From the NCBI GenBank assembly GCA_016193175.1, contig JACPSR010000142.1:54332-118331 (forward strand): a stretch of 64,000 bases of DNA, written 5' to 3'. The notes beneath the pieces are model-generated. The model searched no databases and was not told the origin of the DNA. It saw only the letters and a list, made by a program, of their open reading frames with translations. This document shows positions 16,832 through 28,961 of this stretch, piece by piece. Every line of letters begins with the position of its first letter. Position 1 is the first letter of the stretch. Source of the DNA: Candidatus Omnitrophota bacterium (GTDB lineage: Bacteria; Omnitrophota; Gorgyraeia; Aquiviventales; Aquiviventaceae). Made by a program: the position numbers and the translations under genes.

Positions 16832-16941
16832 TCCGCCCTAGCAGTCCCGCCGAAGGCGGGGTCGCCCGACGACCACAGGATTGCAACAGCGGGTGCGACG
16901 GCTCCACCACGGGTGGAGCCCTGCCAGGGCGTGGGATGATC
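16828..16941 (+). repeat. Palindromic junction element, copy 4 (114 bp, left arm carries a 2-nt deletion)
   Basis: Left arm ATGATCCGCCCT 16828-16839 (CA missing) and right arm CAGGGCGTGGGATGATC 16925-16941. Hairpins CCCGCC-GAA-GGCGGG 16846-16860 and GGCTCCACC-ACG-GGTGGAGCC 16900-16920. Upstream stop TGA 16829-16831 lies in the left arm; downstream ATG 16936 lies in the right arm. Confidence 0.85.
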
Positions 16942-18096
16942 ACCCTGTGCGTTCCCACCTACAATCGTCCCGCGTTCATCGAGCGGTTGCTGCGCTACTA
17001 CGCAGCCACCAGCTCTCGGCACTGGATCTTCATCGGCGATTCCAGCGATCCCAATGATGCCAAGCGCACCCAGCGGGCGGTCGCGTCGTGGGGGGGGCGG
17101 CTCCAGGTGCGCTACGAGGCGTGCGCGGGCTTAAGTTCCTGTGCCGCCTTGGAACATGTCAGTCGCCTCATCATGACCCCCTATTGCGCCTTTTTAGGCG
17201 ATGACGATTTCCTCTGCACGAATGGGATCGAGCAGTGCCTGGAGTTTCTGGAGCGCCATCCCAGCTACGGGGCGGCTCATGGAAAAGGCCTCCTGTTCCA
17301 AACCGAAACCGGAGCTGCGTACGGACCGATTGGGATGGTCAGGCCGTATCCGCAGGTCGTGCTGAATGCGGATTCTGCTGCCGGGCGACTGCGAGACGTA
17401 TTGACCGCACGCGTCGGCGGGCTGCTGTATTCGGTGCATCGGACTCACACGTGGCGGGCCATGTTCGCGGGGATCGGGCGGCTCTCAGGCACGACGAATA
17501 CGAACATCTTCAAAGATGAGCTCATCGCGGTTTGCCTCTCCGCCATTCGCAACACGGTGCAGGAACTCGACTGTTTGTACCTGATTCGTCACACACATGA
17601 GGCGATCTATAAGTACCCCACTATCTACGATTGGGTGACAGATCCGATGTGGTTTCCGTCGTTCCAGGCATTCCGTGATCGCCTGGTCACGGAACTGATG
17701 GAGCAGGACCGTCTGCATGAGCCAGACGCGCAGGCCGTCTTCAAGGATGTGTTCTGGTCCTTTCTGGCTCATGTCCTCATGAACGGTTGGCAGCGATCCC
17801 GGCAACCAGCGCGAGTGAAACCAGTGAGTCGGCTGCAGGTTCTGGCCAAGCGCGTGCCGGGCCTACAGCGCGGGTGGCAAAAGGTGTTGGCCATTCGGCA
17901 GCGGTGGCAAGACGAACTGTCGCTGCCGGCGCTGCTTCACCCCTCCTCACCGTACCATGACGATTTCATGCCGATTTATGAGGCGGTGACCCACGCGCCC
18001 GCGGACGCACTCGTGGCGGTGGCGTCCGAGCGCCACCTGGTGTCCAGCAAGGGCGCGTTGGATGCTGGTGCGGTGCTGAGAGAGCCCCATGGCTGA
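16936..18096 (+). CDS. Glycosyltransferase family 2-like protein (paralog 2 of a tandem pair)
   Basis: MITLCVPTYNRPAFIERLLRYY, IGDSSD and C-terminal SPYHDDFMPIYEAVT parallel the preceding gene. The open frame extends to the ATG at 16828 through the repeat. Confidence 0.5.
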   Translation: MITLCVPTYNRPAFIERLLRYYAATSSRHWIFIGDSSDPNDAKRTQRAVASWGGRLQVRYEACAGLSSCAALEHVSRLIMTPYCAFLGDDDFLCTNGIEQCLEFLERHPSYGAAHGKGLLFQTETGAAYGPIGMVRPYPQVVLNADSAAGRLRDVLTARVGGLLYSVHRTHTWRAMFAGIGRLSGTTNTNIFKDELIAVCLSAIRNTVQELDCLYLIRHTHEAIYKYPTIYDWVTDPMWFPSFQAFRDRLVTELMEQDRLHEPDAQAVFKDVFWSFLAHVLMNGWQRSRQPARVKPVSRLQVLAKRVPGLQRGWQKVLAIRQRWQDELSLPALLHPSSPYHDDFMPIYEAVTHAPADALVAVASERHLVSSKGALDAGAVLREPHG

Positions 18097-18271
18097 ACGG
18101 GATCAGACGCGGGTGTTGATTGTTGGGTGCCGACAAGTGGGCAGTCGGCATCTGCAGGCCGTCGCGACGTTGCCACACGTTGCTGAGATTGACGTCATCG
18201 ATCCGCGCGCTGCGGCGACGCTGACGAGGCACACAGAATCGGTGTTTGGCTACGAAGGAGGAACTGGATGA
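18089..18271 (+). pseudogene. N-terminal remnant (about 40 aa) of a Rossmann oxidoreductase, paralogous to the 5' end of CDS 21227-22231
   Basis: MAERDQTRVLIVGCRQVGSRHLQAVATLPHVAEIDVIDPR versus MAESDNARVLIVGCGELGSRHLQAVATLPDVAEIDVVDSR. Both have the same ATGGCTGA junction. The 60-codon ORF then diverges and stops. Confidence 0.65.
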
Positions 18272-18981
18272 CGCTCACAGGACTCGTGCAACGGGGATGT
18301 CGCACGTTTGGCTTCGAGGTGCGCCGTCTCCACGGCGGGGTCGTACCCCAGCCGCCGCCCATGATTGCGTACTGGCTCGACCGGGTCGAATATGTCCGGT
18401 GCCGCATGGAGCAGATTGCCCATCTCGATGGCGCTATCGTTGAATGCGGGGTCTATCGGGGTCGTACCCTGTCGATGTTCGCCTATTGGATGCAGCGGCC
18501 GGCGCACGCCCAGCGCCACCTCTTTGGATTCGATTCGTTCCGAGGGTTCCCCGCACCGACGCCGAACGATGGAGGAAACCGGGAGGCTCACGAGGGGAAC
18601 TATGGAGACACCTCCCCAGCGATCGTGCGCGCGTTCCTTGAAGCCTCAGGCATTCCTCGGGAATTCATGGAGACGCGGTGTCACCTGATCCCTGGCTTTT
18701 TCAGCGAGACCGTGCCCAATTGGACGCCGCAGCCTATTGCCCTGCTGCATGTGGACTGCGATCTCTATGAATCCACCATGCAGGTGCTCACCCTCCTTGC
18801 GCCGCAGGTCGTCCCAGGAGGCGTCATCCTGTTTGATGAGTACGAAGAGCCTCGGTATCCTGGGGCCAGGCAGGCGATCGAGGAGTATTTCGGTGAGGAG
18901 GTCTCGGCAATCCAAACGGACGCCTTCCGGAACAAGCACTACCTCGTCAAGGTAGGTGTGCCGGCTCAGAGGAGCGCCTAG
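18268..18981 (+). CDS. TylF/MycF-family class I SAM-dependent O-methyltransferase
   Basis: LLHVDCDLYESTMQVLTLLAPQVVPGGVILFDEY is characteristic of the macrocin-O-methyltransferase family. Confidence 0.7.
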   Translation: MTLTGLVQRGCRTFGFEVRRLHGGVVPQPPPMIAYWLDRVEYVRCRMEQIAHLDGAIVECGVYRGRTLSMFAYWMQRPAHAQRHLFGFDSFRGFPAPTPNDGGNREAHEGNYGDTSPAIVRAFLEASGIPREFMETRCHLIPGFFSETVPNWTPQPIALLHVDCDLYESTMQVLTLLAPQVVPGGVILFDEYEEPRYPGARQAIEEYFGEEVSAIQTDAFRNKHYLVKVGVPAQRSA

Positions 18982-20076
18982 GTGTCAGGATCGCCATGGC
19001 GTGGTGAGATGACGGCTGTGCTGACCGAGTATGCACAGGCCCATGTGGTGCGGGAGCCGCGTCTTGTCGAGCGGCTGTTAGTCATCGGGGGGCTGCCCGG
19101 GTGCGGGAAGGGCCTGTTGGCGCCGATCCTCGGCACCTTGGCCCGGATCGAGATCCAGAAGTACAACGAGGCCATCGAGCATGTCTGTGGACTGCGCCTC
19201 CTCGGCAAGCTGGATGAGGAGACGGCCACGGTGATGATCCGGATGCTCACGGACTTGGATCTCTATTACCTCAGCATGTCCAGAGAAGTTAATCTGAGAT
19301 TCGGGGACATCACATCCGTGTGGAAGAATGCCGGAACCCTCCGATATCTCCGAAGGCTGTACCAGCCCGGGGATGCGGCGGCGGTCGAGAGGATTCGACG
19401 CGAACACCCCATCCTCCAGATTCTCCTGCACAGCGGTCTGGCGATCAGCCCGCCGCTGTTTCGGGCCTTGGGAAGCGCCGTGCGGTTGCTCGATCTGGTC
19501 CGGCATCCCCTCCACCTCATTCACGTGTCGTGGCGGGCGTACATCGAACGCTATGGCATCGATGTCCGAGATTTCACGCTCTGGTGTGCGTACGAGGGCC
19601 GGGCGGTGCCGTATTTTGCGCAGGGATGGGAGGACCTCTACCTCAGATCGAACCCCATGGATCGCGTGATTTTTTCGATCGAGCGCTTGCTGGAGATGGG
19701 TCGCCAGGCGATAGAGAGCTTGCCTGATGATCAGAAGGCACAGGTGTTGATTGTCCCATTCGAGCGCTTTGTGCTGGATCCCTGGCCGTACCTGGAGCAA
19801 ATCGAGGGGTGGCTGGGCACACGGCGGACCTCCCTGACACGCAGGACCATGAAGCGGCAGCGCGTGCCGAGGGATCGGGTGACCGCGACGGTTGACCGTC
19901 CGATCGACAAGCTGTATCGCTGGAAGTCTGCGGGGAAGGCCACAGGTGCAGGCGGTGAGTTGGCCCAGCTGCGGCGCGCGGTGGCGACGGAGGCCTCCGC
20001 GGAGGGCCTCAAGGTACTCGACCGACTGTGTGCCGACTATGAGGCGACCTACCTCGACGGCGGCGTGAGATGGTGA
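18982..20076 (+). CDS. P-loop (GxPGxGKG) protein of unknown function, kinase- or sulfotransferase-like
   Basis: VIGGLPGCGKGLL resembles an NMP-kinase-type Walker A motif. GTG start at 18982 or ATG at 19009. The C-terminus LCADYEATYLDGGVRW is duplicated as a remnant at 23326-23413. Confidence 0.4.
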   Translation: MSGSPWRGEMTAVLTEYAQAHVVREPRLVERLLVIGGLPGCGKGLLAPILGTLARIEIQKYNEAIEHVCGLRLLGKLDEETATVMIRMLTDLDLYYLSMSREVNLRFGDITSVWKNAGTLRYLRRLYQPGDAAAVERIRREHPILQILLHSGLAISPPLFRALGSAVRLLDLVRHPLHLIHVSWRAYIERYGIDVRDFTLWCAYEGRAVPYFAQGWEDLYLRSNPMDRVIFSIERLLEMGRQAIESLPDDQKAQVLIVPFERFVLDPWPYLEQIEGWLGTRRTSLTRRTMKRQRVPRDRVTATVDRPIDKLYRWKSAGKATGAGGELAQLRRAVATEASAEGLKVLDRLCADYEATYLDGGVRW

Positions 20077-20342
20077 CCGGCGTCGGTCTCAGGGGGCTTG
20101 CGACGTCCACGCGACGTGGAGGGATTGGCACGCTGCGGGTTGCGGTTCTCGGGACGGGAAGTGCCGGCCTGATGCCTCTGCGTGCGCTGCGTCAGCTCGA
20201 GGGAGTTGAGCCAGTCGCGGTGCCAAGGCGTCTTGAATGCATCGAGGCGTTGGCTGCGATGGGCATGCGCACATCGCGAGATCTGCGTGAGGCAGCCGCA
20301 ACGGGCGCCATCCGCCGTGAGGGGCAATCCCATGACTCCTGA
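20070..20342 (+). pseudogene. N-terminal remnant (about 70 aa) of a Gfo/Idh/MocA oxidoreductase, paralogous to the 5' end of CDS 23407-24423
   Basis: RVAVLGTGSAGLMPLRALRQLEGVEPVAVPRR...RDLREAAATGA versus RVAVVGTGSAGMRHLDVLRQLDGVESIAVPKR...RDLREVVASGA. Both have the same ATGGTGA stop/start junction. Similarity ends near 20312 and the ORF stops at 20342. Confidence 0.65.
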
Positions 20343-21234
20343 GGCAGCCGAAGTTCGTATCGCCGCACCATCCATCGACGCTGGAGAACTCTATGATGTG
20401 GCGGCGGCTGGTGGGGAGTTCTGGTTCTACCAAGATCTCCGAGACAAGAGCCCTCGGTGGTATGATGAATGCTATTTCAACCCAGACTGCGTGTTGCTGT
20501 TTCCGGAGACCCGGCAGGTCTACTGGTTTGATCTCGACCACGTCTCGGTGGGGGCGGAGGCGACCGGTACCCGGCGGCACGTCTTGGGGAACCTCTGGAG
20601 GAAAAAATTCGCCTTCGCCTCCGATGGTAATCGACTGAGTATCCTGCCCTGTGCAGTGACAGGCCTGTGGAGGGGCAGGCCCACGGCGATGCGGCCGCAG
20701 GAGACAGAAGGCATCGCCTACGTGGTCGGCGATCGCTATCGGAGAGTATGCGAGATCAGGGCCGATGGCACGATGGATCCTCAAGAGCGACGCGAGCTCG
20801 ATGAGGCCTGGCGTCAGCACCGGAAGTTGAAGGTGGGGGTACCACTGGGCCGGAGCGTGCTCATCTATGGGATCCGGCTGGCGTTCCAGCAAAAGGGGGT
20901 CTACAGTTTTGCTTCGAAAACCGTGGTCATCCCATCCCCGCAGGCGCGGGCGTTCTCATGGGAGCAGGCATCACTTGGGAACATCTGCGTGGGATCGGAT
21001 GGCTCCTGTTCCATCTACCGTGAACAGACCTCGCGGCCGGGTCTCCTGCAGGTCCTCGCAACCTATGCTCCCACGGTGCTGCAACGGGCTAGCGGCATGT
21101 TGAACCGATCCCCGGATGGGTTCAAGGAATGGGTGCGGTCGCTGGCGCGGCCGATGCTTCGGTGTCTGCTCACATTTGAAGTCGACCATGCGCGGTGCCC
21201 GTTCACGATCTTTGTGAGGGAGGCCGATGGCTGA
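20332..21234 (+). CDS. Hypothetical protein (300 aa), no domain recognised
   Basis: Long ORF with balanced, protein-like composition. Its stop lies in an ATGGCTGA junction with the next gene. It sits between the two remnant-bearing junctions. Confidence 0.5.
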   Translation: MTPEAAEVRIAAPSIDAGELYDVAAAGGEFWFYQDLRDKSPRWYDECYFNPDCVLLFPETRQVYWFDLDHVSVGAEATGTRRHVLGNLWRKKFAFASDGNRLSILPCAVTGLWRGRPTAMRPQETEGIAYVVGDRYRRVCEIRADGTMDPQERRELDEAWRQHRKLKVGVPLGRSVLIYGIRLAFQQKGVYSFASKTVVIPSPQARAFSWEQASLGNICVGSDGSCSIYREQTSRPGLLQVLATYAPTVLQRASGMLNRSPDGFKEWVRSLARPMLRCLLTFEVDHARCPFTIFVREADG

Positions 21235-22231
21235 GTCGGACAACGCTCGGGTGCTGATCGTCGGGTGCGGCGAGCTTGGCAGTCGTCATCTGCAGGCCGT
21301 CGCGACGCTCCCAGACGTGGCGGAGATTGACGTCGTGGACTCACGCACCGAGGCGTTGAGGCAGGGACAGGAACGCCTCGTTGAGGTCACGGAGCGCAAC
21401 CCCCAAACGCGGTATCGTTGGCTATCCTCGTTGGAGGAGGCTGCTGGTGGGGGTCAACTGTGCATTGTGGCTACCCAGGCGGAAGGGCGCTGTCAGCTCG
21501 TGCGGGATGTGGTTGAGCGGCTAGGGTACGGAGGGTTTCTTTTGGAGAAGATCGTCGGCCAGTCCATCGAGGAAATTGAAGGTCTCGAAACGTTCTTGGG
21601 GGTGCGGGGGTGTACCGCCTGGGTCAACCTGAAAACACGGACGTACCCCATCTATCAGCACATCAAGCAGCGGCTGGAGCCTGGCGAGCCCATCCAATTG
21701 ACGTCGCTCGGCGGTAATCACGGTCTGGCCACGAACGGCGTGCATACGGCGGATTTGTTTGCGTTCTTCGATGGAACCGAGGAGATCGAGTTGGTTGGCT
21801 GCCGCGTTGATCCGATCCTGCATCCGTCAAAGCGGGGCGAGCGTCTCTTTGACCTCAGCGGAACCCTCCAAGGGGCCACGAAGAACGGGAGCCATTTTAT
21901 GCTGTCGTATGCGAAGGACCACAAGCAGTCGGAGCAGATCACGATTGCGGGTCGGCGCTATCGGTGCATCGTCGATCAGAGCGAGAGGAAGCGGTGGGTG
22001 GTCGAAAGCCACGTGGACACGGGTTGGGTGTGGCAGCCGGTCCCATCGACAGAGAACCTTCGGGTCAGCCTGATGAGCCGGCAATTTGTCCGGGAGATCC
22101 TCCATACCGGAACCTGCAGCCTGCCGACGCTCAAGGAGTCCTTGGTGGCGCACCGGTTCATCTTCGGGGCCATTCAGCCGGTGTTCAGTCAGCTGATGGG
22201 ACATGAGGTTGAGTTATGTCCGGTGACGTGA
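21227..22231 (+). CDS. Rossmann-fold oxidoreductase, Gfo/Idh/MocA-like
   Basis: RVLIVGCGELGSRHLQA N-terminal dinucleotide fold and FLLEKIVG (a variant of the EKP motif). Confidence 0.55.
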   Translation: MAESDNARVLIVGCGELGSRHLQAVATLPDVAEIDVVDSRTEALRQGQERLVEVTERNPQTRYRWLSSLEEAAGGGQLCIVATQAEGRCQLVRDVVERLGYGGFLLEKIVGQSIEEIEGLETFLGVRGCTAWVNLKTRTYPIYQHIKQRLEPGEPIQLTSLGGNHGLATNGVHTADLFAFFDGTEEIELVGCRVDPILHPSKRGERLFDLSGTLQGATKNGSHFMLSYAKDHKQSEQITIAGRRYRCIVDQSERKRWVVESHVDTGWVWQPVPSTENLRVSLMSRQFVREILHTGTCSLPTLKESLVAHRFIFGAIQPVFSQLMGHEVELCPVT

Positions 22232-23280
22232 CGGGGTCGGCGCTTGAGGCGCGCGCGCCGTGCTCTGCGTCGGAGCTTGCAGCCGCCATCGCCCGGGCGG
22301 ATGTGGCGGGTGCCGTTGCGACCGTGGTCGGAATCGGCACGATGGGCAAACACTTCGTGAGCGCGCTCCGGGCGCTCGGGGTGAAGCGTGTGCGCCTCTG
22401 CGCTCGTTCGCCAGGACCCTTGGAGTCGTTCCGAGCGTTCGAGGGGTTCGAAACGTTCGCCGGCGGCATTGAGCGGTTCGTCGGCCGACCGGCTCCTGGC
22501 GAGCTGGCGATTATCGCGACCCCGACGGCCTTGCTCATCCCGGCCGCCCGGCGGCTGGCGTCGCTGGGCTTCCGTCGGCTGCTGATTGAGAAACCTGTCT
22601 CGCTCTGGCCGGCGGAGATTGAGCGGCTGGCCGAGGAGCTTGAGGGCGAGGGGGTCGAGGCGTCCTGCGCCTACAACCGCGTCGCGTATCCCTCGTGTCA
22701 AGAAGTGCGGGCTCGTGTCGCCCGCGAGGGCGGGGCCACCTCGTGTACCTATACGTTCACCGAGCGGATCAAGCCGGATTGGCCGCAGACGTTTTCCGCG
22801 GAAGAGCTGGCGCGGTGGGGCATCGCCAACAGCTTGCATGTGATGAGCATGGCGCATGGGGTGATCGGCTGGCCCGCGTCCTGGTCGGCCCATCGTTCCG
22901 GCAGCCTGCCGTGGCACCCGACCGGAGCCGTCTTTATGGGGTCCGGCGTCTCGGATCGTGGGATCCCCTTTGGGTATCATGCGGATTGGGGTTCCACTGG
23001 CCGCTGGTCCGTCGAGGTCCATACCGCGGCCGCGTCGTATCGGTTGTGTCCCCTCGAACAAGTGTTTCGCCGGACATCGACGACGAGCGGCTGGACAGAC
23101 ATTCCGGTCGCGGCCTTCGCGCCGCAGGTGAAGGCGGGAATCACGGAGCAGGTGGCGGCGATGTTGTGTGAGGAGATCGGGGAGCGGGTGCCGCTGGTGT
23201 CGCTGCGCGCGGCCGCCTCGCTGTCGAGATACGCTGAAGCGGTCTTCGGCTATGACTCGGCGGAGACAGAGGCGCCATGA
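22216..23280 (+). CDS. Rossmann-fold oxidoreductase, Gfo/Idh/MocA-like
   Basis: VVGIGTMGKHFVSAL, IATPTALLIPAARRL and LLIEKPVS (EKP motif). Confidence 0.55.
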   Translation: MSGDVTGSALEARAPCSASELAAAIARADVAGAVATVVGIGTMGKHFVSALRALGVKRVRLCARSPGPLESFRAFEGFETFAGGIERFVGRPAPGELAIIATPTALLIPAARRLASLGFRRLLIEKPVSLWPAEIERLAEELEGEGVEASCAYNRVAYPSCQEVRARVAREGGATSCTYTFTERIKPDWPQTFSAEELARWGIANSLHVMSMAHGVIGWPASWSAHRSGSLPWHPTGAVFMGSGVSDRGIPFGYHADWGSTGRWSVEVHTAAASYRLCPLEQVFRRTSTTSGWTDIPVAAFAPQVKAGITEQVAAMLCEEIGERVPLVSLRAAASLSRYAEAVFGYDSAETEAP

Positions 23281-23325
23281 TCGTCGCAGTCGATCGCGCG
23301 GATCGATGAGGATGGAGACGCCAGT

Positions 23326-23413
23326 GCCAACCGTGTCATCCTTCGTTGAGACAGCGAGGCGGCTGTGCGCAGCCTATGAGGCGATGTACCTCGACGGTGG
23401 CGTGGCATGGTGA
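23326..23413 (+). pseudogene. C-terminal remnant of a paralog of CDS 18982-20076
   Basis: ARRLCAAYEAMYLDGGVAW* versus LDRLCADYEATYLDGGVRW*. DNA similarity runs from 23363, matching 20026 onward. It lies in otherwise non-coding 23281-23406. Confidence 0.55.
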
Positions 23414-24423
23414 TGGGCAGAGTGGCGACGCGGGTCGGGGTGCGGCGGGTGGCCGTCGTCGGAACGGGAAGCGCTGGCATGAGGCATCTGGATGTCCTAC
23501 GTCAACTCGACGGCGTTGAGTCGATCGCCGTGCCCAAGCGTCCCGAGCGTGCCGCAGAACTGGCCGGAGCTGGCCAGGCGGCGTTGCGCGATTTGCGCGA
23601 GGTGGTGGCGTCCGGTGCCACGCGCGCGATCATCGCGACGGATACCGGCTGTCACCTTGAAGATGGGCTTGCAGCGCTGGGGCAGGGGTTGGACCTGCTC
23701 ATCGAAAAGCCGCTGGCGACCAACGCCACCGACGCGGCACGGCTTCGCGCGGCGGCTGTCCACGCCGGGCGAAGACTATTCGTTGGTTGCGTCTTACGGT
23801 TTTCGGAATCCCTCAACGCCTTCCACTCGTTGCTGAAGCAGATCGGCCGGGTGCACTCGGTGCGCATCGAATGCCAGTCATATCTGCCGGACTGGCGGCC
23901 CGCCCGCCCCTATCAGGAGTCCTATGTGGCGCGTCGCGTAGAAGGCGGGGTCTTGTTAGATCTCATTCATGAGATCGACTACGCGGGGTGGATCTTCGGG
24001 TGGCCCAAGGCGGTTCAGGCGAGGCTACGCAACGTGGGGCGCTTGAGCATCGCGGAAGAGGAAACCGTTGATCTGCTGTGGGAAACGCCCATGGCCGGCT
24101 GCGTCTCGATGAGCTTGGATTATCTGACCCGCCCCCCACGCCGCGTGACGCGGGCCTGCGGGGAACGGGGGACCGTGGAGTGGGATGGCATCGCGGGGAC
24201 GGCGAGCTTGGCCCTTGCGGGACAAGCGCCGATGGTCGTCCGCTCTTCACAGACACGCGAGGAGATGTTCCTCGCCCAGGTGCGCGCGTTCCTCGAAGCG
24301 TGTGGTGACGGGCGCGATCCGCGACTGGCCACAGCTGAGGATGGCGTGAGGGCTCTGGCGGTCTGTGACGCAGCACGCCGGTCCTCTCAGAGCCGGCAGG
24401 AGGAGCCGGTGGTGATCCTATGA
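23407..24423 (+). CDS. Gfo/Idh/MocA family oxidoreductase (PtmF-like position in a nonulosonic acid cluster)
   Basis: RVAVVGTGSAGMRHL, LLIEKPLA (EKP motif) and a C-terminal alpha/beta domain. Directly upstream of neuA. Confidence 0.75.
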   Translation: MVMGRVATRVGVRRVAVVGTGSAGMRHLDVLRQLDGVESIAVPKRPERAAELAGAGQAALRDLREVVASGATRAIIATDTGCHLEDGLAALGQGLDLLIEKPLATNATDAARLRAAAVHAGRRLFVGCVLRFSESLNAFHSLLKQIGRVHSVRIECQSYLPDWRPARPYQESYVARRVEGGVLLDLIHEIDYAGWIFGWPKAVQARLRNVGRLSIAEEETVDLLWETPMAGCVSMSLDYLTRPPRRVTRACGERGTVEWDGIAGTASLALAGQAPMVVRSSQTREEMFLAQVRAFLEACGDGRDPRLATAEDGVRALAVCDAARRSSQSRQEEPVVIL

Positions 24424-25172
24424 GCGTCGGCAGGCGGTTGCTGGCGGTGATTCCCGCGAGGGGAGGATCGCGCGGGCTGCCGGGCAAGAACATCCGACTG
24501 TTTGCGGGGCTGCCCTTGATCGGCCATGCGGTTCGCTTTGCGCAAATGTGTCTTGAGATCACGCGAAGCGTCGTCTCCACGGATGACGAGGAGATTGCCC
24601 GAGTGGCGCGGAACTGTGGCGCGGAGGTCCCGTTCATCCGACCATCAGCGCTCTCGCAGGATGACACACCGCTGTGGCCGGTGGTTCGCCATGCGCTGGC
24701 ATGGGTCGAGGAGCACGAGGGAGAGGCCTACGACCTCGTGTTGCTCTTGGATCCCACCTCACCAGCGAGGGAGCCCTTGGATGTGAGCCAGGCGATGGAG
24801 CGGCTGCGGCACGCCCCAGAAGCCGACGGCATCATCGGGGTATCGCAGCCGGACTTCAACCCCATCTGGCACTGCGTGGTCGAACGTGACGGATGGATGG
24901 CCCATCTGATTGATAGCGGCAGGCAATTTCATCGTCGGCAGGACGTTCCCACGGTGTACCGCATCAACGGCTCGCTCTACCTGTGGCGGGCCGCTTTCGT
25001 CCGGGACCAAGCCGCTGCGTGGGAAGCGGGAAGGCACCTGATGTACGAGATTCCGGAGTCTCGGGCGATGTCGATCGACACGATCGAGGAGTTTGAACAG
25101 GCGGAGTTGTTGGTCACAGGGGGCCTCATCCATCTGCCGTGGGTGCAGGAGGACGAAAGCAGAGCAAGATGA
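24420..25172 (+). CDS. neuA: N-acylneuraminate (nonulosonate) cytidylyltransferase
   Basis: LAVIPARGGSRGLPGKNIRLFAGLPLIGHAV is the CMP-NeuAc synthetase family signature. Confidence 0.85.
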   Translation: MSVGRRLLAVIPARGGSRGLPGKNIRLFAGLPLIGHAVRFAQMCLEITRSVVSTDDEEIARVARNCGAEVPFIRPSALSQDDTPLWPVVRHALAWVEEHEGEAYDLVLLLDPTSPAREPLDVSQAMERLRHAPEADGIIGVSQPDFNPIWHCVVERDGWMAHLIDSGRQFHRRQDVPTVYRINGSLYLWRAAFVRDQAAAWEAGRHLMYEIPESRAMSIDTIEEFEQAELLVTGGLIHLPWVQEDESRAR

Positions 25173-26002
25173 CCAAGGGTCAGGTGACGGCAACGGCGAC
25201 GCGAACCCTCGCGGATCTCATGCGACTGTCAGGACGCAAGGCGCTGATTACTGGAGGGACCGGGCATGTGGGGGTGGCGGTCGGCGAGGCGCTGGTTGAG
25301 TTGGGCGCGACCGTGGCGGTGCTCGATGTCGATGCCGCGAGATGCCAGGAGCGCGCGGACGCCTTGGGCCGGATGCGAGCGCGCAGCGCGGTGGCGATTC
25401 CTTGCGACCTTCGTGACGAGCAAGCGACCCGGGGCGCCATCCACCGGTCGATTGAATGGCTGGGGGGTTTGGACATCCTCGTCCATTGCGCGGCCTATGT
25501 GGGGACGGACCAGCTCCCCGGCTGGGTGGTACCGTTTGAGCAGCAGACGGTGGACGCGTGGGATGCGGCCATGCGGGTCAATCTGACCTCCGCCTTCATT
25601 ATGGTGCAGGAAGCCCGCACGATGCTGGACGCCTCCGGTACCGGCTCGGTGATCCTCATTGGCTCGACGTACGGACTGGTCGGCCCTGATCCGCGCCTCT
25701 ACGAGGGTACGACGATGGGGACTCCCGCAGGTTACGCGGCTTCCAAGGGCGGCGTGCTGCAACTCACGCGGTATCTCTCGACCGTCCTGGCGCCACGCGT
25801 GCGCGTGAATGCCATCACCCCGGGAGGGATCTGGCGCAATCAGCCGGAGGCGTTCCACCAGCGCTATGTCAGCCGCACGCCGCTGGGCCGCATGGCTTCC
25901 GAGGAAGATCTGAAAGGGGCGGTCGCGTATCTGGCCAGCGACCTCTCGGCCTACGTGACAGGGCAGAATCTCGTCGTCGATGGAGGATGGACGGCATGGT
26001 GA
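25169..26002 (+). CDS. Short-chain dehydrogenase/reductase (PtmA-like)
   Basis: ALITGGTGHVGVAVG, YAASKGG catalytic Y-x3-K, and C-terminal VTGQNLVVDGGWTAW. Confidence 0.8.
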   Translation: MTKGQVTATATRTLADLMRLSGRKALITGGTGHVGVAVGEALVELGATVAVLDVDAARCQERADALGRMRARSAVAIPCDLRDEQATRGAIHRSIEWLGGLDILVHCAAYVGTDQLPGWVVPFEQQTVDAWDAAMRVNLTSAFIMVQEARTMLDASGTGSVILIGSTYGLVGPDPRLYEGTTMGTPAGYAASKGGVLQLTRYLSTVLAPRVRVNAITPGGIWRNQPEAFHQRYVSRTPLGRMASEEDLKGAVAYLASDLSAYVTGQNLVVDGGWTAW

Positions 26003-27039
26003 TCGCCGAGCGATCCGTCGGTCCGGGGCAGCCGTGCCTCATTATCGCGGAGGCCGGGGTCAATCATAACGGCGACATGGCGCTCGCGCGGCGCTTGATC
26101 GACGCCGCCGCCGAGGCCGGGGCTGACGCGGTCAAGTTCCAGACCTTCAAGGCCGAACGGTTAGCGAGCGCATCGGCTCCCAAGGCCGCTTATCAATGGC
26201 AGGCCACCGATCGCTGGGAATCGCAGCGCGAGATGCTGCGTCGATTGGAGCTGTCGGAATCGGCTCATCGAGGCCTCATGGTCTCTTGCCAGCAGCGCGG
26301 CATCCTGTTTCTCTCATCTGCTTTTGAGGAGGAAAGCGCCGATCTGTTGGAGCGGTTGGGCGTGTGCGCCTTCAAGATTCCATCAGGAGAACTGACGAAT
26401 CTGCGGTTCTTGGAGCATGTCGCTCAGAAGGGCAAGCCGATGATTGTGTCGACCGGGATGTCCACCCTCTCGGAGGTTGAGCAGGCGGTGCAGATCATTC
26501 GACGAGCCAGGAACGATCAACTCATCCTGCTCCATTGTGTCAGCGACTACCCGGCCAATCCATCGGATGCAAATCTGCGCGCCATGCATACGATGGCTGA
26601 GGCGTTCAACGTGCCAGTGGGGTATTCCGATCACACCCCGGGTGTCGATGTCGCCTTAGCCGCCGTGGCCTTAGGGGCGTGTGTCATCGAAAAGCATTTC
26701 ACGTTGGATCGGGCGCTTCCGGGACCGGATCATCGCGCTTCACTCGAGCCCAATGAGTTGCGTCAACTGGTTGAAGGTATTCGGAGGGTCGAAGCTGCGC
26801 TGGGACATGGGCGCAAGGAACCGGCTCAGCGCGAAGCCCCGACCGCCGCGGTGGCGCGCAAAAGTCTCGTGGCCGCCAGGGATATTCCGGCTGGGAGTCT
26901 CCTGACCGAAACACTCATTGTGGCCAAGCGTCCCGGGACCGGTTTACCGCCAGCCCTCTTGCCTCAACTGGTTGGACGAAAGACCGTCCACGATATTCCT
27001 GCCGGCGCGCTCTTGACCCTCGACATGGTGGCTTCATGA
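25987..27039 (+). CDS. neuB: N-acetylneuraminate/legionaminate synthase family (NeuB) with C-terminal SAF domain
   Basis: PCLIIAEAGVNHNGDMALARRLIDAAAEAGADAVKFQTF and GYSDHTPG. An alternative start at 25996 gives an ATGGTGA overlap. Confidence 0.9.
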   Translation: MDGMVIAERSVGPGQPCLIIAEAGVNHNGDMALARRLIDAAAEAGADAVKFQTFKAERLASASAPKAAYQWQATDRWESQREMLRRLELSESAHRGLMVSCQQRGILFLSSAFEEESADLLERLGVCAFKIPSGELTNLRFLEHVAQKGKPMIVSTGMSTLSEVEQAVQIIRRARNDQLILLHCVSDYPANPSDANLRAMHTMAEAFNVPVGYSDHTPGVDVALAAVALGACVIEKHFTLDRALPGPDHRASLEPNELRQLVEGIRRVEAALGHGRKEPAQREAPTAAVARKSLVAARDIPAGSLLTETLIVAKRPGTGLPPALLPQLVGRKTVHDIPAGALLTLDMVAS

Positions 27040-28961
27040 GAACGATTGGGGTGGTGACGGTTGGTCGCTCAGATTACGGCATCTACGTGCCCATCCTGCG
27101 CGCCATTCAGCACGAGCCGGCTCTGCAGTTGCATCTCATCGTTAGCGGGATGCATCTGTTGGAGGAGTTCGGGTTGACGGTGCGCGAGATTGAAGCCGAC
27201 AGATTTCCGATCGGCGCGCGCGTGTTCCTCCCGTTGCCTGAGGACAGCCCCGAGGCGATCGCGGCGGCGATCGGTGCGGCGGTGACGGGGTTTGCTCGCG
27301 CGTATGCCTCGCAGCGGCCGGATCTGTTGATCGTGCTGGGGGACCGGTTCGAGATGTACGCCGCGGCGGTGGCGGCTTTGCCCTTGAAGATTCCGGTGGC
27401 GCATATCCATGGTGGGGAACTGACGCAAGGTGCGATGGATGACGCGCTGCGTCATTCACTGACGAAACTCAGCCATCTTCACTTCGTCGCGACGGAGGAG
27501 TATGCCCACCGCGTCATCCAACTCGGGGAAGAGCCCTGGCGCGTGACGGTGTCGGGTGCGCCGAGCTTGGATCACGTCGGGATGGTGCCGTTGCTGACGG
27601 CTGAAGCCCTGTGTAACCGGTTTGGATGGCATTGGGAGGCGGCGCCGCTACTGGTGACCTACCATCCGGTGACACTGGAGTACGAGCAGACCGAGTGGCA
27701 GATGACTGAACTCCTCGACGCCCTGGAGGAATGCAAGCGGCCCATGATCTTCACGATGCCCAATGCCGACATGCATGGCCGTGTGATTCGACGACTCCTC
27801 ACAGCGTTCATCGCCTCCCACCCCAATGCGCACGCGGTGGAGAATCTTGGAACCCAAGGCTATTTCAGCTTGATGGCCGCTGCCGCGGCGATGATCGGAA
27901 ACTCCTCCAGCGGTCTGATTGAAGCGCCGTCGTTCGGTCTGCCGGTCGTGAACATCGGGACGAGGCAACAGGGGCGGGTACGGGCCTCGAACGTCATTGA
28001 TGTGGGCTATAGTCGAACGGAGATCATCCGCGGCATTCGCCAGGCGCTGACGGCCGAGTTCCGAGCCGCCATCCGCCATGGCACCAACCCCTATGGCGAT
28101 GGGCACGCCGCCACGGTGATCGTGAACACCCTCAAGGCGATGCCGTTGGATGATCGGTTGATCAAAAAGCGATTCGTCGATCTGCCGGTGGAGAGGCCGG
28201 ACCGTGCTGACTCGCCGGCCCTCGTGCCAACTCGGGGTGAACCGATGGAACGGTGTGTGATCCTTGGGGGCGGAGGGCACGCCCGTGTGGTCATCGACAG
28301 CCTCCTCGCCAGCAAGCTGGCGGTGCCGTATGCCGTCGTTGACGCTGATCGGTCGCTGTGGGGCAAGGAGCTGTTGGGCGTGCCGGTCGTCGGGGACGAT
28401 GAGCGGCTGCGAGAACTGCGCTGTGAGGGGGTGACGCGATTCATCGTGGGGCTTGGCGGGGTCGGGGATAACGGCCCGCGACAGCAGCTCTTTTGTCTGG
28501 GAATGACCAGTGGTCTTGCCCCGCTGACGGTATGCCACCCGTCTGCGATTTGTTCACCCTCAGCGGTGATCGGTGAGGGATCCTTTCTCGCGCCGGCAAC
28601 CGTGGTGAACTCAGGGGCCGGACTGGGGGTGAATGTGATTGTGAATACGGGGGCGATCGTGGAACATGACTGCGCCATCGGTGACCACGTCCACCTCGCG
28701 ACCGGGGCAAGACTCTCAGGGCACGTCCTCGTCGGCGCGGGCGCCCATATTGGCGCCGGGGCCACCATTCGGCAGCGTGTGACGATCGGCGAGGGGGCGA
28801 TTGTTGGCGCGGGCGCGGTCGTCGTGAAATCGGTTGAGCCCTGGACGGTTGTGGTGGGCGTGCCCGCCCGAGTCCTGGAGCAAGAGCCGGCTGACGCTCA
28901 CGACAAAACGCATGACCGCCAACACGTCTCAGGGCGACAACAGAAGGAAGGGGCCCTATGA
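27036..28961 (+). CDS. neuC: Fusion protein: hydrolysing UDP/GDP-N-acetylhexosamine 2-epimerase (NeuC/LegG-like) with a NeuD/PglD-family hexapeptide acetyltransferase
   Basis: The N-terminal ~385 aa start IGVVTVGRSDYGIYVPILRAI. The C-terminal ~220 aa contain VILGGGGHARVVIDSL plus left-handed beta-helix repeats (GAHIGAGATIRQRVTIGEGAIVGAGAVV). Confidence 0.85.
   Translation: MRTIGVVTVGRSDYGIYVPILRAIQHEPALQLHLIVSGMHLLEEFGLTVREIEADRFPIGARVFLPLPEDSPEAIAAAIGAAVTGFARAYASQRPDLLIVLGDRFEMYAAAVAALPLKIPVAHIHGGELTQGAMDDALRHSLTKLSHLHFVATEEYAHRVIQLGEEPWRVTVSGAPSLDHVGMVPLLTAEALCNRFGWHWEAAPLLVTYHPVTLEYEQTEWQMTELLDALEECKRPMIFTMPNADMHGRVIRRLLTAFIASHPNAHAVENLGTQGYFSLMAAAAAMIGNSSSGLIEAPSFGLPVVNIGTRQQGRVRASNVIDVGYSRTEIIRGIRQALTAEFRAAIRHGTNPYGDGHAATVIVNTLKAMPLDDRLIKKRFVDLPVERPDRADSPALVPTRGEPMERCVILGGGGHARVVIDSLLASKLAVPYAVVDADRSLWGKELLGVPVVGDDERLRELRCEGVTRFIVGLGGVGDNGPRQQLFCLGMTSGLAPLTVCHPSAICSPSAVIGEGSFLAPATVVNSGAGLGVNVIVNTGAIVEHDCAIGDHVHLATGARLSGHVLVGAGAHIGAGATIRQRVTIGEGAIVGAGAVVVKSVEPWTVVVGVPARVLEQEPADAHDKTHDRQHVSGRQQKEGAL

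Follow-up and report, generated by a model that had tools for sequence, protein, structure and literature searches.

The window, as we call the whole stretch of 64,000 nucleotides analysed here, comes from an uncultured member of the Omnitrophota. Across its positions 1-63350, ~55 consecutive genes are encoded on one strand, and ~30 of their junctions are 4-nt or 1-nt stop/start overlaps; the window represents an unusually long, tightly packed glycan-biosynthesis operon. The locus of interest runs, in order, through a glycosyltransferase gene (GT), a stub designated X2'::X3', TylF, P, a stub designated Gfo', X1, X2, X3, 79 nt followed by a remnant designated P', Gfo, and genes for a cytidylyltransferase, an SDR and NeuB. 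The PseF-like cytidylyltransferase, the short-chain dehydrogenase (SDR) and the NeuB-family synthase, which scores above its curated cut-off, identify the surrounding genes as a nonulosonic-acid-type sugar cluster. The individual features are as follows.

18089-18271, + strand: X2'::X3' stub of 60 codons, in which the first 43 codons of an X2 copy are joined in frame to the last ~17 codons of an X3 copy.
18982-20076, + strand: intact copy of P (P-A), 364 aa, with a predicted sulfotransferase fold and a GGLPGCGK loop.
20070-20342, + strand: Gfo' stub, a 90-codon ORF whose first ~82 codons match the N-terminus of GfoB (below) and that of the Gfo protein on a related contig, L045.
20332-21234, + strand: X1, 300 aa, member of a rare family, lying exactly between the two copies of a repeated unit.
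21227-23280, + strand: intact X2 (21227-22231) and X3 (22216-23280) of copy 2, whose orthologues lie upstream of P.
23277-23280, + strand: ATGA, in which the X3 stop TGA (23278-23280) overlaps an ATG; in L045 this is the start of full-length P.
23281-23359, + strand: 79 nt of unrecognisable origin from the X3 stop to the remnant, with an SD-like GAGGATGGAG at 23308-23317 and an in-frame GTG at 23324.
23306-23413, + strand: 35-codon ORF, MRMETPVPTVSSFVETARRLCAAYEAMYLDGGVAW and a stop, containing the remnant; its ATG is overlapped (ATGA) by the stop of a 10-codon ORF at 23277-23309.
23330-23350 paired with 23390-23411, + strand: predicted RNA hairpin of 20 pairs (5 of them G-U) that covers GGTGG and ATG 23407.
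23360-23413, + strand: P' remnant, by tail homology the last 17 codons and TGA of a deleted sulfotransferase-fold ("P-loop") gene.
23407-23415, + strand: stop/start overlap ATGGTGATG, in which the P' stop is TGA 23411-23413.
23407-24423, + strand: intact Gfo/Idh/MocA oxidoreductase gene (GfoB), the first of a conserved Gfo-cytidylyltransferase-SDR-NeuB block.

From the stop codon of X3 to ATG 23407, the gap measures 126 nt. Among the ~55 co-directional genes, where overlaps of 4 nt or 1 nt prevail, only ~8 junctions are longer than 100 nt, and the description of this gap in the initial annotation as unusually long for the operon was thus borne out. Three of these rare long gaps correspond to the three stubs; the remaining long gaps of the window yielded no further recognisable remnants.

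In the frame of the ORF at 23168-23413, the last 17 codons before the stop read RLCAAYEAMYLDGGVAW, and the C-terminus of the P-A protein reads RLCADYEATYLDGGVRW. The two tails (20023-20073 in P-A) are identical at 14 of 17 amino acids and 42 of 51 nucleotides. Compared with P0002, the closest known homologue, which is encoded on the Logan contig L045, P' shares 15 of 17 amino acids over the core (E = 4e-7) and 45 of 51 nucleotides. When the full P-A protein was searched by tblastn against the 64-kb window, P' was the sole match below E = 0.01 outside the P-A gene itself (14 of 17 identical, E = 2e-4). By blastn, P' forms the 5' end of a continuous alignment of ~290 bp between 20023-20315 (A) and 23360-23625 (B), with E = 2e-27, which passes the stop/start overlap and reaches ~82 codons into Gfo. 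The 5' edge of the homology is sharp, only 4 of 15 bases matching in 23345-23359, and P' contains no indels. The match to the P-A C-terminus that had been read from the sequence at the outset is therefore real, but it extends over 54 bp including the stop and not over ~85 bp; by tblastn, the upstream reach of the similarity ends at 23360, with nothing robust in 23281-23359.

The same ATGGTGA junction had been said to follow both the remnant and the intact gene, and it does so, at 23407-23413 and at 20070-20076; the motif is also the same in contigs L045 and L046, and in L052 the junction is TGATG. Two candidate starts for Gfo are found here, ATG 23407, with a 7-nt overlap, and ATG 23413, with a 1-nt overlap (TGATG). 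Both ends of the former gene are accordingly still marked in the window, which keeps the X3-stop/ATGA junction and the P-stop/Gfo-start junction. The body of P is gone: 126 nt are available in place of the 1095 nt of the intact gene.

Relatives carry the complete arrangement. In L045, the X3 C-terminus (...GYDSAEGEAP and a stop) is followed by ATGA, a 359-aa P that is 82% identical to P-A, ATGGTGA and Gfo, which stays open for >204 residues, to the contig end. The source run of this contig, SRR12113385, has an accession neighbouring those of the runs that match the window exactly. Positions 1-18 of L045 are the Nextera transposase mosaic-end GATGTGTATAAGAGACAG, an untrimmed adapter, and its first bases are not genomic. 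In L052, where Gfo shares 76% identity with GfoB, the P C-terminal region runs into TGATG-Gfo; on the P0112 contig, P stands directly before Gfo and the upstream gene overlaps Gfo by 7 nt. P also directly precedes Gfo in an Acidobacteria genome (L007) and in two metagenome loci (L084 and L085). In more distant clusters, which are ordered GT-X2-X3-(SIS or TylF)-P, P and Gfo are separated by other genes. X2-X3 orthologues were found upstream of P in L001, L002, L005, L006, L009 and L012. The proposal that P was once followed by Gfo at this position, and was then largely deleted, is directly supported by these contexts. At the intact P copy of the window, the Gfo that follows P-A is itself only the 82-codon stub.

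TylF in the window (18268-18276) begins with the same 9 nt as P in L045 (positions 170-178), ATGACGCTC. Both copies of ATGACGCTC lie at an X3-stop ATGA junction, a coincidence that is not significant alone (p = 0.13). Loss of TylF in the L045 lineage may have left the shared nonamer as its trace.

Tail-only copies of P were searched for by comparing the P tails of 40 homologues with 43 genome loci, L001 and the window; among these, the window alone contains a second, tail-only P copy. A tail-only stub next to Gfo was found in none of 80 further metagenome loci. A scan of JGI metagenomes with GfoB returned relatives that were at best only 66% identical, none of them with a tail-only stub. Five Logan assemblies, each from a different sequencing run, match the window at 100% identity along 2.8-10.8 kb that include the gap, and L047 (window 16836-27683) covers all three stubs. 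Because these independent assemblies are identical, the structure is not an assembly artefact. An Rfam search of 23150-23550 at a permissive E-value gave no match, and neither a sigma-70-like promoter nor an intrinsic terminator was found in 22900-23700.

The parent gene was characterized by homology and structure prediction. P-A had no Pfam or NCBIfam match above threshold; the PF13469 (Sulfotransfer_3) score for P was 13.5 bits against a cut-off of 27, and a few P homologues carry a precomputed PF13469 match. About 109 homologues were collected, mostly from MAGs of Omnitrophota, Acidobacteriota, Nitrospirota, SAR86 and others, and the record matching P-A at 100% is a hypothetical protein, HYY59_07375, of a Candidatus Omnitrophica MAG. 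Exact-sequence look-ups of the window GfoB and of P0001 returned no record, and the alternative-start version P0110 had one. An AlphaFold (AF2) model of P-A was built from 40 homologues (pLDDT 88), and the top Foldseek matches to it were TPST1/2 and bacterial sulfotransferases (TPST2 3ap3, E = 1e-7). In the family alignment, the GGLPGCGK loop is invariant at G37, G40, G42 and K43. On this model, P represents an uncharacterised family with a predicted PAPS-sulfotransferase fold that recurs in nonulosonic-acid clusters of several phyla, and this recurrence hints at sulfated nonulosonic acids.

At the C-terminus, a motif LDRLCxEYEAxYL is conserved across the P family and forms a confidently predicted terminal helix (residues 340-358). 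The remnant corresponds to the second half of this helix and the tail, with none of the catalytic parts. From the alignment and the model, then, the remnant sequence is specific to the P family and not a generic motif. The initial annotation had raised the possibility of similarity confined to a few residues common in unrelated proteins; the family-specific motif and the alignment at E = 2e-27 refute this.

Comparison of the 79 nt upstream of the remnant (23281-23359) with full P genes (window, L045, L046 and L001), P 5' ends and TylF, the methyltransferase gene that precedes P-A, gave no robust similarity. The best marginal match, between 23309-23365 and the SD, start and first ~15 codons of P in L046, had p = 0.017, which fails over four tests. 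P-family N-termini are variable even among close homologues, and the 79 nt may, on sequence grounds, be such a variable 5' end of P. It is also possible that replacement or filler DNA lies here in place of a single clean internal deletion.

The initial annotation did not describe the wider arrangement of which the remnant is a part, in which two copies of a segment carry reciprocal deletions. The alignments resolve the locus into two diverged copies, collinear with each other, of an X2-X3-(TylF)-P-Gfo5' segment, with X1 between them and complementary internal deletions. Order and strand are the same in both copies (X2', X3', P, Gfo' in the first and X2, X3, P', Gfo in the second), and each gene survives in exactly one of them. 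Copy 1 has kept TylF and P, has lost X2-X3 (stub 18089-18271) and ends in the Gfo stub at 20070-20342; copy 2 has kept X2, X3 and Gfo and has lost P (stub 23360-23413).

The X2'::X3' stub sits in a 171-nt gap after the glycosyltransferase gene. Its X2' DNA (18077-18217) aligns with 21215-21355 without gaps at 76% identity (E = 6e-27), and its X3' tail reads RAAATLTRHTESVFGYEGGTG before the stop, compared with RAAASLSRYAEAVFGYDSAETEAP in X3. At its two ends, this stub shares bases with its neighbours, its start with the GT stop (ATGGCTGA) and its stop with the TylF start (ATGA). The Gfo' stub retains an intact Rossmann motif, GTGSAG; its homology extends to ~20315, and its stop lies in an 11-nt overlap with the X1 start.

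X1, at the joint between the copies, starts at ATG 20332; the mechanically listed ORF 20182-21234 is over-extended. The X1 family has 8 members among 5.8 billion clustered proteins and no Pfam match. Elsewhere (L053, L054, L055 and L136), the gene directly after X1 is HisF-like, and a PglD-like acetyltransferase gene precedes X1 in three of these four contexts. In the window, these neighbours are found at ~28452-28898 and 32022, which places X1 out of its usual position. Two other readings of this joint were considered and rejected. The X1 C-terminus, "FTIFVRE...", belongs natively to the X1 family, which argues against its derivation from the GT tail, and Gfo' and X1 are not a single frameshifted gene because X1 homologues have no Rossmann N-terminus and occur in other contexts.

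Divergence between the copies was measured for each pair. P' and P-A are 82% identical at the nucleotide level with dN/dS 0.25, Gfo' and GfoB 63.5% with dN/dS 0.26, and X2' and X2 76% with dN/dS 0.22; pairs of functional orthologues gave dN/dS of 0.11-0.44, so that the stub ratios fall inside the functional range and bear the signature of purifying selection. None of the three stubs has a frame-breaking indel. P' and the functional P-A are equally close to the L045 P tail (45 of 51 nt each), which argues that the stub has not decayed. The word "decayed" in the initial annotation therefore does not hold for a remnant with no indels that is preserved like a functional copy (dN/dS 0.21-0.25). The dN/dS of ~0.2 for P' reflects its past as part of a whole gene; within the lineage there is no variation, all assemblies being identical. 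The divergence of the stubs would thus have arisen while each was part of a working gene, and truncation would be recent relative to that divergence.

At the 5' end of Gfo, identities are 63.5% between copies A and B and 68.9% for both A-C and B-C, where C is L045; for the P tail, the copies are 82% identical to each other and 88% identical to L045. The copies are not closer to each other than to the L045 orthologue, although with segments of only 51-219 nt the test is a weak one. Simple recent in-genome duplication is for this reason not supported. The data are compatible with an old duplication of which both copies long remained functional, or with import of a segment from a related lineage. 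Since the copies are as diverged as orthologues of different lineages, the second may be a recombination import from a relative and not an in-place duplicate. No lineage was found with the same stub in a different sequence.

Taken together, P' is very probably the surviving 3' end of a P gene that once stood between X3 and Gfo, and one of a set of complementary stubs in a two-copy locus. In the order of events that we propose, P would have lain between X3 (22216-23280) and Gfo (23407-24423), the position that it keeps in the nearest relatives. Nearly all of it would then have gone in an internal deletion that spared the ATGA junction at 23277 and the ATGGTGA junction at 23407. Loss of P could be tolerated because a second, diverged P copy (18982-20076) lies 3.3 kb upstream. 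More broadly, two diverged versions of a five-gene segment would have been joined and then thinned until one working copy of each gene was left; the copies would have diverged as whole genes and been truncated late. More tentatively, the stub may persist as the carrier of a termination-reinitiation site for Gfo translation.

The null version of this explanation differs from it only on present function. On this reading, which we consider probable, the stub would be the neutral scar of a very recent deletion, without a present role and still intact because too little time has passed for decay. Its divergence from homologues is that of the functional copies, indels are absent, and only one lineage shows the structure; gene remnants in polysaccharide clusters are, besides, a recognised sign of recent events (PMC7685785). 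For a single recent deletion, the unrecognisable 79 nt beside a perfectly preserved 54 nt are slightly odd.

A more doubtful alternative is that the stub is actively kept as a coupling bridge, in which translation of a short ORF would bring terminating ribosomes to the Gfo start; selection would then act against deletions of the stub. The ribosomes could arrive by a relay from X3 via two ATGA overlaps, or by initiation at GTG 23324 with its own SD, and their passage might unmask the hairpin. Each of the three stubs is an open ORF that overlaps neighbouring genes with both its start and its stop, and the overlap chain from X3 to Gfo is unbroken (ATGA at 23277, 10 codons, ATGA at 23306, 35 codons, then ATGGTGA or TGATG). 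Shuffled versions of the 79 nt reproduced the relay in 4% of cases under a strict, narrow rule and in 16% under a lax, broad one, which is not decisive. The GAGGATGGAG element lies 6 nt before GTG 23324 and forms a predicted anti-SD duplex of -8.5 kcal/mol, compared with -5.1 at the Gfo start; against this, equally weak SDs are found on many genes of this operon. The predicted hairpin over ATG 23407 pairs the unrecognisable part of the gap with the remnant. Its sub-region has z = -2.28, with 5 of 200 shuffles folding as well, a post hoc and weak result, and the whole-gap fold has z = -1.39; a counterpart at the intact P/Gfo' junction is absent (z = +0.49). In published work, coupling needs no more than the final 15 nt of the upstream gene and collapses at gaps of ~20 nt (PMC10666635). 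However, each of these statistics is marginal and post hoc, an internal deletion preserves both gene ends by construction, and the identity of all assemblies leaves no variation or covariation to examine.

The same idea can be extended, at a lower probability, to operons in general in which nearly all genes are coupled to the next. Gene loss there may be constrained to leave short bridge ORFs, which would preserve the stop/start overlap at either end and pass ribosomes over the gap. The three stubs, of 60, 90 and 10 + 35 codons, would then be selected relays and not inert scars, the third being an out-of-frame deletion rescued by an internal ATGA. We regard this reading as unlikely.

It is very improbable that the stub encodes a functional micro-protein of 29-35 residues keeping the C-terminal half-helix of a sulfotransferase-like enzyme. 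The ORF is open, with possible starts, an SD and 17 conserved C-terminal residues; half a terminal helix, however, has no plausible independent fold, the ORF has no Pfam match, and no free-standing small-ORF homologue was found in any locus examined. A chance match, or a short motif that unrelated proteins often share, is barely credible, for although only 17 residues are involved and the window-level E value is modest, they are contiguous with ~240 further homologous bases, end on the same stop/start overlap, lie where relatives carry the gene, bear the motif of the P-family C-terminal helix and have no second-copy counterpart in the 44 other loci of the tail search.

The three stubs record, nearly stepwise, the rebuilding of a long sugar-biosynthesis operon in an uncultured phylum, and provide a clean natural example for the study of operon rearrangement. 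For annotation, they explain three "hypothetical" small ORFs and one over-extended ORF. The locus could also be used as a natural test for limits that translational coupling may set on deletion endpoints. The scar is real but of an ordinary evolutionary kind, a tidy new case from an uncultured phylum, with no new kind of element or mechanism.

Several known systems are comparable. A review of E. coli O-antigen clusters lists 9 "gene remnant" anomalies among 178 serogroups, and gene remnants in polysaccharide clusters are read there as a sign of relatively recent rearrangement (PMC7685785). The present locus resembles these O-antigen and capsule remnants in having short fragments of pathway genes within a mosaic, co-directional sugar-biosynthesis cluster. 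It differs from them in its setting, a nonulosonic-acid-type cluster of an uncultured omnitrophote with no mobile element, and in that a complementary set of three stubs reconstructs a two-copy intermediate. With reciprocal loss after segmental duplication, itself an established idea, it shares two collinear copies in which stubs mark the lost genes, whereas here the copies are as diverged as orthologues of different lineages and a foreign gene, X1, lies at the joint.

P itself shares with the PAPS-dependent sulfotransferases (TPST2, PDB 3ap3; Sulfotransfer_3) the predicted fold and a GxxGxGK loop at the expected position. Unlike them, it falls below the Pfam threshold and belongs to an uncharacterised family, and the stub is without the catalytic parts. 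Translational coupling via overlapping stop and start codons is established (PMC6728339; PMC10666635). As in termination-reinitiation coupling at ATGA and TGATG (PMC6728339), the stop of the stub overlaps the Gfo start, just as it does in the intact pair; in contrast to those cases, stop and start here overlap by 7 nt or 1 nt and the upstream "gene" is a relic of 29-35 codons, a putative ORF.
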